IMG/VR virus record: IMGVR_UViG_2579778702_000001
From: a virus
Lineage: Duplodnaviria; Heunggongvirae; Uroviricota; Caudoviricetes
DNA length: 23,294 nt
Reading direction: 5' to 3' (one strand)
The position numbers and the translations under genes are program-made. The notes under the pieces are model-generated. The model had not been told where the DNA came from, did no database searches, and worked only from the letters and a program-made list of their open reading frames with translations. The stretch's first letter is position 1, and each line of letters opens with the position of its first letter. Of the stretch, positions 1 through 3,991 are shown piece by piece.

Positions 1-93
1 GGGTCTAACTCTGCCGATAATATAGCGGGCGTTTATTACAGACCCGTTCAAAAGTATATAAATGGCACCTGGTATAATGTAGCGAGCGTTTAA
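1..93 (+). CDS. 3' end of an alternative side-tail-fibre C-terminal (variable) cassette; 5' part lies outside the window
   Basis: Frame 1 is open from position 1 to a TAA at 91-93 and reads ...[19 protein letters not shown], matching the C-terminus of the minus-strand stf product (...[19 protein letters not shown]). It is followed 1 nt later by the plus-strand tfa-like start, mirroring the stf-tfa junction on the other strand. Confidence 0.6.
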
Positions 94-94
94 T

Positions 95-622
95 ATGATG
101 CACTTAAAGAACATAAAAGCGGGTAATGCTAAAACACTGGAACAGTATGAGTTAACAAAGAAACACGGAGTTATCTGGCTTTACTCTGAGGACGGAAAAA
201 ACTGGTATGAGGAAGTGAAAAACTTTCAGCCAGACACCATAAAGATTGTTTACGATGAAAATAATATTATTGTTGCCATCACCAGAGATGCCTCCACGCT
301 TAATCCCGAAGGTTTTAGCGTCGTCGAGGTTCCCGATATAACGGCCAATCGTCGGACCGATGATTCCGGTAAGTGGATGTTTAAGGACGGAGCTGTGGTT
401 AAACGGATTTATACGGCTGACGAACAGCAACAACAGGCCGAATCACAAAAGGCCGCATTGCTTTCCGAAGCTGAATCAGTCATCCAGCCGCTGGAACGCG
501 CTGTCAGGCTGAATATGGCAACAGACGAGGAACGCACACGACTGGAAGCATGGGAACGCTACAGTGTTCTGGTCAGCCGTGTGGATACGGCAAATCCTGA
601 ATGGCCACAAAAGCCTGAATAA
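95..622 (+). CDS. tail fibre assembly protein, inverted-orientation paralogue (Mu U'-like position)
   Basis: 175-aa ORF ([40 protein letters not shown]...), roughly two-thirds identical by eye to the minus-strand tfa product at 651-1184, which begins [40 protein letters not shown]. The two genes are convergent. Confidence 0.85.
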
Positions 623-627
623 AAATT

Positions 628-647
628 AAGGCCCGATAGCGGGCCTT
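628..647. terminator. perfect 8-bp GC-rich hairpin between the convergent tfa stop codons; putative terminator
   Basis: aaggcccg-atag-cgggcctt lies between the plus-strand stop (620-622) and the minus-strand stop (651-653). The minus-strand transcript has a U-run after the hairpin (plus-strand aaaaatt at 621-627); the plus-strand side has only a weak U-tract. Confidence 0.5.
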
Positions 648-650
648 CTC

Positions 651-1184
651 TCATTCTGGTTGTTCTGGAAACGTTACTGGCAGGCTGGAGGTGTCTGTGG
701 ATTCAACCTTCTGCGCATAGAGCATCCACTCGGTTAATTTTTGTTTATTCTCATCGGAAATGATGCCCAGCCGTAGCTGAGAGTCCCACAGTTGGGTTTT
801 ATCCCTGACGAGCTGCAGCAGGCTCTGCTTTTCATTTTCCGCTTGTTGCCTTTGCTCTTCCTCGGTATAAGTTCGCTTTATCACCGCACCATCTTTGAAC
901 ATCCAGTTGCCCGAAATATCAGCCCGGCGATTTGCTGTAATATCAGGCAACTCAACGACACTTAAACCTTCTGGATTAATTGCTGATACATCCTTGTCTA
1001 TAGCAATAATTATTCCCTCAACTGTGTAAGCCAGTTTTATTGTATCCTCCTGAAAGTTTTTTAATTCCTCATACCAATTTTTTCCATCTTCGGACCATAA
1101 CCAGATAACATCAAAATTCTTTGTTAGCTGGTATTGTTCAACGGTTTTTGGATTACCTGCGACAATGTTTTTTAAATGCTGCAT
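651..1184 (-). CDS. tfa: tail fibre assembly protein (chaperone for the expressed stf tip)
   Basis: 177-aa ORF starting 2 nt after the stf stop. It is a Tfa-family paralogue of the 95-622 ORF and sits where lambda has tfa. Confidence 0.9.
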
Positions 1185-1186
1185 GA

Positions 1187-3991
1187 TTATACCTGCGATA
1201 CGTTATACCATGTTCCGTTAATTAACTTTTGTATTGGTCTGAATACTGCCGGATCATCACCATCGACTTCACCGATAATACCAAGCCCCGTGATTACATG
1301 GCCTGATTTTTCATACATCACACCTTTCTTCATGGTCTGAACAACTCGTGTGCCAAGTCTGACATCTCTCACATAGCGGGAATCAAAGTTACCGTAATCC
1401 GAGGGGTTAACACGCCCTGTAATATTTATGGTTTTATTACTTTGAATGCTTCCGGAGACAAAGCGCATAACATGGACGTTATTAGCATAAACATCCAGAT
1501 TACCATCGCCATTTTGTTTAAAGCCCGTGTCATTATCACCCAATACAATCGAATTACCGCCAAGAGCACTGGATGTTCCGATACCCAGTGCACCATTCAG
1601 TTGACCACCAGATAACGGCAGTGCACCAACATCTCCTGCTGAAGGTTTTCTGGTGGTGGTGTAAAATTCGGACCAGTCGGCTTCAAAACCATAACCATCA
1701 CGGGCTGAACGATAAAAAATACCGCCATTTTTATAATTAATCCGAAACTGAGCTGCAGGACAACTTCCTTCTCCCATATAAAAATGAATAATTAACGTTG
1801 ATGCACCACTAATAGTTGCGTTATAGGCTCCGCTACTCCAGTTCCATCCAACTGCTTTATCATTCGCAACGGTGCTTCCTGTTTTCCCTAAGGCAAACGC
1901 ACCAACATGACTTGCTTTTAATGTGATATCGGAGGAACCATCAAAAACCACATTGCTTATTTTCCTGGCAGTTTTTAATTTTGCAGCTGTAGAAGCATTG
2001 CCGGATAGTTCACCAGAAAGGCCACCGCTGAATGTTTGTCGATTAGTCCAGGTATTCGCTGTACTGAGTAACGGTATTTTCTCCCCGCTTGTGCCGAGTT
2101 CTCGTAAACCGAGGTATTCGATAACGGCGGCAACGGTCGATTTCGCAAGAATATCCCGCCCAACTTTTGTCAGGGTTGCCAGACTGGCAACATCATTCCC
2201 CGTAAAATACGGAAACCTGTCTGCCGCAGTAGCAAGCCCGGCCAGCGCCGTCAGGGTGGCATCTTTCGGTTGCTTACCCGCAAGCGCGCTAGTCATGGTG
2301 GTCGCAAAATTCGGGTCGTTGCCCAACGCCGCAGCCAGCTCGTTCAGCGTATTCAGTGCGTCAGGCGACGAGTCCACGAGGGCAGCGATCGCAGCCATAA
2401 CATAAGCCGTGCTTGCGATTTGGGTATTATTCGTTCCCTGTCGCGCAGTTGGTGTTGTTGGCGTTCCGGTCAGTGCAGGACTATTTAAGGGCGCTTTCTT
2501 GTTCGTTTCACCCATTACCGCCTTAACCGCTTTTGGCGTTGCCGCCAGTGACTCGGAAGTGCTGTTGGTCGCACTGCTGAGCTGTACTATCCCCTTTTTC
2601 GTCGTGCTCGCATCCTCAAGCGCCACGGCGGATGCAATATCCTCTGCCCGTTTTGCCGCTGTCTCAGCGCGCGTTGCTGCAGATTCCGCCGTACTTTTGC
2701 TCTGAGCTGCTGCCGTCGCACTGCCAGCTGCCTCTGTCGCCTTCGTGGATGCCGTCGTGGCGCTACCCTTCGCTGCTGACGCCTGTCTGGTCGCCTCATC
2801 TTTTGAAGCAGACGCAGATGATGCCGATGACGCCGCCGAACTGGCTGACGATGCGGCTGCCGCCTTAGAGGAAGCAGCATTGTCTGCTGAAGTCTTTGCA
2901 TTTGTTTCAGAGGTTTTTGCTGCAGAAGCAGACCTCGCTGCTGCAGTGGCTTGCTCAGTGGCTTTGCCAGCCTTCGTTGTGGCTGTTGAAGCGGATGATG
3001 CGGCGCTTTCTGCCGATTTTCCGGCGGCGGTGGCACTGGCTGAGGCCTGCCCGGCACTTGTTGACGCGGCACTGGCAGATAATGCAGCCGCTGTTTTTGA
3101 ACCTGCCGCAGCTGAGGCGCTCTGTCCCGCTGCTGTTTCAGAAGACTTAGCGTTCGTCTCGGACGTTTTTGCCGCCTTCGCGGAATTTCCTGCCGCCGTT
3201 GCCGAGGAAGCTGCACTACTGGCACTTGATGATGCATTCGTTTCTGAAGATTTCGCTGCCTCTTTTGAGGCCGCCGCACCCCGTGCCGAGGTGGCAGCTT
3301 CTGACGCCTTCGTGGTCGCTGTGGATGCAGAAGTGGCTGCTGATTTTTGTGATGCTGCCGCATTCGTTTCTGACGTTTTCGCGGCACTGGCACTGGTAGC
3401 TGCCGCGCTTTTTGAGGACTCTGCAGCGGCAGCACTTTTCGATGCTTCACTGGCCTTTGTTGATGCCGCTCCTGCGCTGGAAGACGCTGACTGAGCCGAC
3501 GACGCGGCCTGTCCGGCTGACGTGCTGGCTGCGCGTGCTGAGCCTGCAGCATCAGTCGCATGGGTTGCCGCCTCACGGGCTGATGTGCGGGCATCGCTGG
3601 CTGACTTCTTCGCGGCTGCCGTGTTCTGTGCCACTGCGGACGCGTTACGCGCCACCTCTTCCACCATCAGTTCAAAACGGCGCAGTGCCTCTGGCCGGAC
3701 ATCATCCTCCGTCATGGCACCGAGAAAATCATTCAGCGTACCGGGTCGGGAATCTTCATACACGGTGATGGTCCCGGCATGTGAAGGCGGAAAACCTTCA
3801 ACCAGCAGGGTGACGCTGTACTGACCATGCTCAACATCCATGCTGTAACGTCCGGCTTCATCCGGATTTTCAGAGGCCACCGTGTTCACCACCACCGTGC
3901 TGCTGGTTCGTCTGGCCTTCAGCACAATGGTGCAGTTTTGTATTGGTTTTCCTGTGCCATCTTTCAGTACGCCTGAAATTTTTACTGTCAT
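1187..3991 (-). CDS. stf: side tail fibre protein, intact; lambda Stf-like N-terminal and shaft part with a non-lambda C-terminal tip
   Basis: 934-aa ORF. The N-terminus [28 protein letters not shown]...[14 protein letters not shown]...[14 protein letters not shown] and the Ala/Ser/Thr-rich shaft with KTSETNA-type repeats match lambda Stf as recalled. Homology ends after ...[11 protein letters not shown]; the last ~300 aa differ from lambda. Sits immediately downstream of lom, as in lambda. Confidence 0.92.
2099..2124. other. DNA invertase crossover site (gix/hix/cix/pix-like), 26 bp, inside the stf coding sequence
   Basis: Plus-strand TTCTCGTAAACCGAGGTATTCGATAA matches the Mu gixL sequence TTCCTGTAAACCGAGGTTTTGGATAA (from memory) at 22 of 26 positions, with imperfect dyad symmetry. 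On the minus strand it encodes VIEYLGLRE, the last stretch conserved with lambda Stf. Position is +/-1 nt. Confidence 0.7.

Follow-up and report, generated by a model that had tools for sequence, protein, structure and literature searches.

The stretch of DNA analysed here, referred to below as the window, is a viral sequence of 23,294 nucleotides (IMG/VR record IMGVR_UViG_2579778702_000001) that represents the late region of a lambda-like prophage, with the genes for terminase, portal and head proteins, tape measure, gpJ, Lom, the tail-fibre protein Stf and the chaperone Tfa arranged on the minus strand. The subject of what follows is its left-hand end (positions 1-2124), which is very probably part of an invertible segment of about 2,990 bp, of the Gin/Cin/Pin/Hin (Din) type, lying at the distal end of stf in a lambda-like prophage of E. 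coli. Positions 1-23294 make up the entire contig JMGT01000026.1 (assembly GCA_000687105.1), the only contig on which this exact Stf protein is recorded; position 1 is therefore an assembly break, and the part of the segment missing to its left had to be read from relatives instead. An earlier interpretation made from the letters of the window (the sequence-only reading) was correct in placing the start of the window inside the segment, except that this start is a contig break and not an arbitrary cut. The features concerned are collected in Table 1.

Table 1 Features at and next to the left-hand end of the window, in order of position.
Feature	Position	Strand	Remarks
End of silent tip B	1-93	+	30 codons plus stop; frame-1 translation; 5' part lies past the contig end
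tfa'	95-622	+	Silent-cassette chaperone, 175 amino acids; Mu U orthologue; Caudo_TAP, E = 8e-38
Hairpin	628-647		G+C-rich; 8-bp stem with 6 G-C pairs, 4-nucleotide loop; between the convergent tfa genes
tfa	651-1184	-	Expressed-cassette chaperone, 177 amino acids; Mu U' orthologue; Caudo_TAP, E = 4e-34
Variable end of expressed tip A	1187-1366	-	Last 60 Stf codons; differs from tip B
stf	1187-3991	-	Open reading frame, 934 amino acids
Inverted-repeat arm	1353-2130		778 bp, of which 739 bp perfect; partner arm past the contig end
Crossover site	2099-2124	+	TTCTCGTAAACCGAGGTATTCGATAA; 26 bp, Gin/Pin/Cin type; begins at stf codon 623
Constant N-terminal part of stf	2125-3991	-	Codons 1-622; fusable to either tip; Pfam phage_tail_N
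lom	4055-4660	-	Open reading frame in the late region
gpJ	4728-8207	-	Open reading frame in the late region

All of the elements listed in the sequence-only reading (crossover site, tip, tfa, hairpin, tfa' and the end of a second tip) are present where it had placed them. Downstream of the crossover site stf continues for 312 codons, and the hairpin between the two tfa genes, which is followed on the minus strand by a run of T residues, is likely to be a terminator. Measured between its outer ends in the relative E. coli OZ040035.1 the segment spans 2,990 bp, of which the window carries the right-hand 2,124 bp (71%), while the flank containing the constant part of stf is colinear in both orientation states found among the relatives.

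The crossover site itself has the form expected of its family, namely two imperfectly symmetric 12-bp half-sites (inner half TTCTCGTAAACC, outer half GGTATTCGATAA) around a 2-bp core, here GA. As a 26-mer it is unique in the window when up to 3 mismatches are allowed (chance expectation 0). Relative to the gix site of phage Mu, TTCCTGTAAACCGAGGTTTTGGATAA, as taken from the annotated boundaries of the G segment, it is identical at 22 of 26 positions, the four mismatches leaving the GA core shared, and its inner half faces the segment as in Mu. It is moreover identical to the fibre-side sites of a number of other prophages discussed below (locus L019 and the P2-like prophages L015, L017 and L021), and its reverse complement includes TTATCGAATACCTC, which is the outer half plus core in the published 5' sites of Phi1 and Phi4 (PMC4134206, Table 3). 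A shufflon-like system capable of multiple inversions was also considered; additional quasi-sites were sought in the window at up to 5 mismatches and none was found.

Among relatives the outer half-sites are fixed by position (L005-L010, L019 and L020), while the inner half-sites occur in two variants, TTCTCG and a Mu-like TTCCTG, on differing cassettes and sides in these same loci. This variation is reminiscent of the localized conversion at crossover sites attributed to P1 Cin in a paper cited in PMC4134206.

Since the source contig is incomplete, the anatomy to the left of position 1 was examined in the closest complete genome, that of OZ040035.1, which is 100% identical to the window over positions 1-2400 and 99.1% identical over 1-4014. 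(For brevity, loci carry labels where they must be told apart: L001 is E. coli OZ040035.1, L002 is NCTC86, L019 is AR_0086, L020 is AVS0193 and L015 is prophage Phi1 of strain EC958.) The sequence-only reading had predicted that an alternative tip of about 300 codons, lacking its own start, would be found there, with an inverted copy of the site at its 5' end. Both exist: the startless tip runs for 311 codons from site to stop (7161-8093), ending at the equivalent of window position 93, and the inverted site, TTATCTAAAACCTCGGTTTACGAGAA, occupies 7135-7160. Translation of window positions 1-93 gives a sequence identical both to the end of this tip and to the C-terminus of the Stf protein obtained when the segment is inverted in silico (see below). 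NCTC86 has the same arrangement at another chromosomal site, and the second inverted site is present in every close relative that covers that side (L001 and L002, at 7135-7160 in each, and L004-L011); in the source copy it would be expected about 865 bp past the contig end.

For the adjacent invertase gene, which had also been predicted, the outcome is more mixed. A gene of the right kind does lie beside the second site in OZ040035.1, 54 bp beyond it and annotated as 'recombinase family protein', but it is a remnant of just 60 codons. These are 95% identical to residues 1-60 of Gin and match the Pfam Resolvase N-terminal domain (E = 3e-15); at codon 61 TGG has become TGA, and homology to full-length invertase genes is gone after nucleotide 191. 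A functional adjacent serine invertase (about 185-200 amino acids, with a catalytic domain and a C-terminal helix-turn-helix) is accordingly lacking in the nearest relatives. When searched for at a query coverage of at least 80%, the junction between the truncated invertase and a tfa fragment (L001 6740-7134) was found in 536 of 5,426 complete E. coli genomes. Loss of the invertase in this form is therefore widespread, and presumably goes back to a single ancestral event.

Further to the left of this invertase (pin) remnant, in the region 5700-6900 of OZ040035.1, there is a gene for a class I S-adenosylmethionine-dependent methyltransferase (6031-6699), flanked by two tfa 3' fragments on the same strand (5708-5881 and 6754-6858) that form direct repeats of about 145 bp, some 89-90% identical. 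This block, which lies directly against the junction of the invertase deletion, is found again in L002, L006, L009, L019 and L020, at two chromosomal sites. It may be a moron, whose insertion, or some rearrangement nearby, may have been what destroyed the invertase.

To model the two states, the segment of OZ040035.1 was flipped in silico at the two site cores. As the sequence-only reading had anticipated, each state gives an in-frame Stf, of 934 amino acids before and 941 amino acids after inversion, the latter with tfa' directly next to it. The two proteins first differ at residue 875; that only their last 60-67 residues differ is due to an inverted repeat of 778 bp common to the two cassettes. 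This repeat comprises window positions 1353-2130 and OZ040035.1 positions 7906-7129 (99.1% identity), with the crossover site at the outer end of the arm; counted from that end, the arms are identical from position 10 to position 748, a perfect stretch of 739 bp. The description of the tip in the sequence-only reading as a variable region of about 300 residues therefore needs to be narrowed: the tip is there, but its variability is confined to these last 60-67 residues, the other 250 or so being encoded within the inverted repeat. Both open reading frames of the silent cassette are intact.

Among the contigs that carry the exact Tfa' protein, both orientations are represented. State A, in which stf leads into tip A and tfa, is that of the window, L004 and L013, while state B, in which it leads into tip B and tfa', is that of L005-L011. 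The 941-residue Stf followed by an identical Tfa' is found in L007, and L006 is colinear with the in-silico inverted form of L002 over 4,786 bp, at 99.25% identity. An attempt to map the crossover from the state A locus L002 and the state B locus L006 was uninformative, as the arms are identical over 739 bp, and a sister segment was used for this purpose instead. The 739-bp repeat, or near-identical cassettes in other prophages, probably caused the short-read assembly to break near position 1.

The sister segment has the constant part of stf, the outer half-sites and the pin remnant in common with the window type; it carries tip B together with a third tip, tip C, and has no long repeat. In the genomes AR_0086 (L019) and AVS0193 (L020) its flanks are 100.000% identical over 4,122 and 4,093 bp, even to the extent of sharing an ISEc12 insertion in lom, and between them a 3.1-kb segment is inverted. 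In this pair the outer half-sites stay in place while the inner variants TTCCTG and TTCTCG swap sides, which places the crossover within the 26-bp site, in the interval from position 6 to position 17: the inversion of the sister segment is a site-specific recombination. In both genomes the invertase gene is the dead remnant, so that, with both sites intact and the invertase in cis dead, inversion must be catalysed in trans. Across the complete genomes tip B adjoins the pin remnant in 286 and is fused to stf in 206, counts that mix the window type with the type found in E. coli sequence type 131 (ST131), tip B being common to both.

The invertase acting in trans is probably supplied by a co-resident P2-like prophage. 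AR_0086 contains such a prophage, with a full-length invertase of 199 amino acids; its fibre-side site is the same as that of the window, while its invertase-side site is one nucleotide off the pin-side site of the lambdoid element. The remnant, for its part, retains 266 nucleotides counted from the site, which are 92% identical to Mu and 95% identical to the invertase region of EC958 Phi1. In the Hin system the Fis-dependent enhancer is a 65-bp element about 100 bp from hixL (PMC3798978), and the retained 266 nucleotides cover the equivalent position; judged by this correspondence, the enhancer in the remnant may still work. Inversion in trans has an experimental precedent in the flipping of the e14 segment by PinQ (PMC12529663), and in cultures of E. 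coli the segments of e14 and of Mu-like and P2-like prophages have been reported to flip (PMC4272514).

The likeness to the Mu G segment extends well beyond the sites. Positions 31-1222 of the window align with Mu 32910-34102 (from the end of S through U and U' to the end of S') at 85.5% nucleotide identity, Tfa' being 90.9% identical to U and Tfa 85.9% identical to U', while Tfa and Tfa' are only 56.5% identical to each other. Among proteins of known structure, Tfa' finds a full-length match in the Mu U chain (PDB 5yvq_B, E = 4e-103) and the Stf tip matches the Mu S/S' chains 8ju3_A and 5yvq_A. In Pfam, both tips carry the gp37_C domain and both chaperones the Caudo_TAP domain (PF02413), with scores of 118 and 130 bits where the cut-off is 22.1 bits. 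The order of elements is also shared (constant fibre part, site, tip, chaperone, convergent chaperone, tip, site, invertase, over some 3 kb), as are the spacing of 1-2 nucleotides from tip stop to chaperone start and, in the relatives, the close identity to Gin of what is left of the invertase. The Sv-U / U'-Sv' layout recognised in the sequence-only reading is therefore borne out by homology to Mu as well as by the anatomy of the relatives and the in-frame inversion. There are, however, clear differences. The window type is carried by a lambda-like siphovirus prophage whose constant fibre part resembles lambda Stf and not Mu S; its tips are mosaic with respect to Mu Sv/Sv' (85% identical to S' over 93 residues, but about 50% identical to S over the last 80); the two tips of Mu are dissimilar throughout, while those of the window type are identical except in their last 60-67 residues; and close relatives of the window have a dead invertase.

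Taken together, these observations suggest the following mechanism. A serine invertase would pair the site at 2099-2124 with its inverted partner about 3 kb to the left and cleave both at the central GA/TC dinucleotide, after which the segment would flip. State A, the orientation of the window, has the 622 constant codons of stf fused to tip A, followed by the Mu U'-like Tfa; after inversion (state B) they would be in frame with tip B, followed by the Mu U-like Tfa'. The last 60-67 residues, the part of the fibre that Tfa-type chaperones bind, presumably also make the contact with the receptor, and by exchanging them the switch would alter host range. The enzyme would be a Din-family invertase acting in trans from another prophage, for instance a P2-like one with near-identical sites, assisted by a Fis-dependent enhancer predicted to lie within the first 191 nucleotides of the invertase gene, which are kept in close relatives.

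All this said, several observations count against extending this mechanism to the window's own copy, and they are best considered together with the possibility that the element is a frozen relic, in which, for want of a compatible invertase, the prophage would be fixed in the state with tip A and Tfa, while tip B and Tfa' would be a silent fossil. The source contig ends at position 1, and whatever lies beyond it (second site, remainder of tip B, invertase) has been read in relatives only. In all of the close relatives examined the invertase has shrunk to 60 codons, and each of the 536 complete genomes mentioned above contains this truncated junction. As regards the particular pairing of tip A with tip B, complete genomes contain state A only (7 records, or about 2-3 strains), a search for tip A adjoining the pin remnant among the 5,426 complete genomes returning 0; all examples of the pair in state B come from draft or metagenome assemblies, in which the 739-bp perfect repeat makes orientation calls from short reads unreliable. 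Furthermore, a probe containing the 5' end of the invertase matched at one place only in OZ040035.1, and a closely related invertase able to act in trans may be absent from that genome. Against this must be set the fact that the same probe is matched in 4,603 of the 5,426 E. coli genomes, and that both sites, the enhancer region and both reading frames of the silent cassette are intact. Flipping does occur in the sister segment, whose sites and invertase remnant are the same, as is evident from its occurrence in both orientations (286 as against 206 genomes), from the isogenic pair inverted at the sites, and from PacBio reads (PMC4134206). A relic is thus possible but unlikely, and we infer that the copy in the source strain is complete and still flipping.

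A different question is whether the 26-bp sites are responsible at all, given that arms identical over 739 bp would provide ample homology for inversion by RecA-dependent recombination, and that the breakpoints between L002 and L006 can be placed only somewhere within the repeats. The sister segment, however, inverts without any long repeat and with its breakpoints inside the 26-bp sites, and the sites of the window type are identical or near-identical to proven ones, so that homologous recombination as the actual cause seems quite improbable. The two routes are in any case compatible, and the question is then one of how often each is used and not of what the module is. Still less can be said for the idea that no invertible element exists and that the convergent tip and chaperone genes arose through a chance duplication during prophage mosaicism. 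Mosaicism is admittedly strong in tail-fibre regions, the match of isolated lambdoid phages to the window begins only at about position 2520, and the cassette of tip B and tfa' shares 98.6% identity with its counterpart in a P2-like prophage; but chance would hardly have put a canonical GA-core site in frame within stf and an inverted partner where the silent tip starts, with an invertase remnant adjoining, nor does it account for both fusions being in frame and both orientations occurring in nature. The in-frame fusions, the inverted partner site and the inversion of the sister segment effectively refute it.

As to known relatives, the window represents a new combination of cassettes in a kind of element that has already been published. 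Prophage Phi4 of E. coli EC958 (ST131) contains a 3,106-bp invertible tail-fibre segment, detected through alternative PacBio contigs and bounded by the sites TTATCGAATACCTCGGTTTACAGGAA and TTATCTAAAACCTCGGTTTACGAGAA; its invertase was described as 'severely truncated', and inversion in trans by the invertase of the P2-like prophage Phi1, which has near-identical sites, was proposed (Forde et al. 2014, PMC4134206). The sister segments of L019 and L020 are of this Phi4 type. Phi4 and the window type are alike in being carried by a lambda-like prophage with the same constant part of stf, in their size of about 3 kb, in their outer half-sites (TTATCGAATACC on the fibre side and TTATCTAAAACC on the invertase side) and GA/TC core, and in sharing the invertase remnant, the flank with methyltransferase and tfa fragments, and the C-terminus of tip B. 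They differ in their cassettes, Phi4 having tip B with a 177-residue chaperone and a 322-residue tip C with a 175-residue chaperone, where the window type has tip A with the 177-residue Tfa and tip B with the 175-residue Tfa' (the chaperones of the two types being 58-78% identical). They also differ in the inverted repeat, which is 36 bp and imperfect in Phi4 as against 778 bp (739 perfect) in the window type, and slightly in the length of the segment (3,106 as against 2,990 bp).

P2-like (Xuanwuvirus) prophages such as EC958 Phi1 and Escherichia phage 503458 carry a module with 84-89% nucleotide identity to window positions 1-2400, and the same fibre-side site as the window; their context, however, is that of a myovirus, the constant part is a P2 H-type fibre, and the adjacent invertase is full-length, at 199 amino acids. 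The inverted repeat of Phi1 is reported as 508 bp at 77% identity (PMC4134206), as compared with 739 perfect base pairs in the window type. The silent cassette (site, tip B and tfa') is much closer, with 98.6% identity over 1,600 bp between OZ040035.1 (L001 7101-8700) and Phi1 (L015 3101-4700), a value well above that for the rest of the module, which suggests recent exchange between unrelated types of prophage. One might go further and suppose that the lambdoid switch is wholly dependent on a co-resident P2-like prophage, both for the invertase and as donor of cassettes, with gene conversion between the tips leaving only 60-67 residues different. Such complete dependence is doubtful, but if true it would amount to a minimal, 'receptor-tip only' switch, in which one prophage governs the host range of another.

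In the C segment of phage P1, a plasmid-prophage myovirus with an intact cin gene, the crossover sites (cix) recognised by Cin lie at the outer ends of inverted repeats of about 0.6 kb within both fibre genes. The window type, with its 778-bp repeat and sites at the outer ends, resembles it in this feature. The P segment of e14 in E. coli K-12 (stfP/tfaP, tfaE/stfE and pinE) is, like the window type, lambdoid, with convergent tfa genes, tip fragments and an adjacent pin gene, and flips both in culture and in trans through PinQ, as noted above. It differs in being only 1.8 kb long and in belonging to a decayed prophage in which stfE is a pseudogene while pinE is full length, and the one site found is 7 of 26 positions off that of the window.

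In itself the element is of modest importance, as it adds one more allele to a classic type of host-range switch in phages. It is nevertheless of some practical consequence that annotation pipelines label the parts of such modules as unrelated 'partial' tail-fibre genes, and that, for repeats of this length and perfection, orientation in draft assemblies cannot be relied upon. With the dead-invertase junction in about 10% of complete E. coli genomes, many lambdoid prophages probably rely on the invertases of other prophages, as already proposed for EC958 Phi4 (PMC4134206). Finally, with tips that differ in their last 60-67 residues only, this pair is a clean natural experiment in which the specificity for receptor and chaperone could be mapped.

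Some minor features of the surrounding region may be added. Within the constant part of stf, codons of about 110-480 (window positions of about 2550-3660) form a long repetitive stretch rich in Ala, Ser, Thr and Lys, which also gives rise to spurious long open reading frames of 335 codons (2587-3594, minus strand) and 249 codons (2745-3494, plus strand). The length of Stf among relatives ranges from 559 to 968 amino acids, a spread that suggests expansion and contraction of repeats. The similarity of the window to isolated lambdoid phages (Chlobot, ev099, PhiR42_1, mEp332 and others) is about 96% between positions 2520-2532 or so and 23294, and these phages show no match leftwards of this; as their similarity stops at about 2520, they carry no information on the invertible segment. 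The place where these alignments stop, some 400 bp upstream of the crossover site, looks like a mosaic joint, in which case the invertible module would be a swapped-in distal end of the fibre. The two ends of the window (1 and 23294) are both contig ends of the draft assembly, the right-hand one falling just past the open reading frame of the terminase large subunit (21073-22998). Lastly, the product of lom, a member of the Lom/Ail family, ends in GDWRTDAVSSWVTAINSD, while the Lom protein of a relative ends in GDWRTDAFIVGIGYRF; this looks like a frameshift near the 3' end with loss of the last beta-strand and the C-terminal Phe, and the Lom protein encoded in the window may as a result fail to assemble in the outer membrane.

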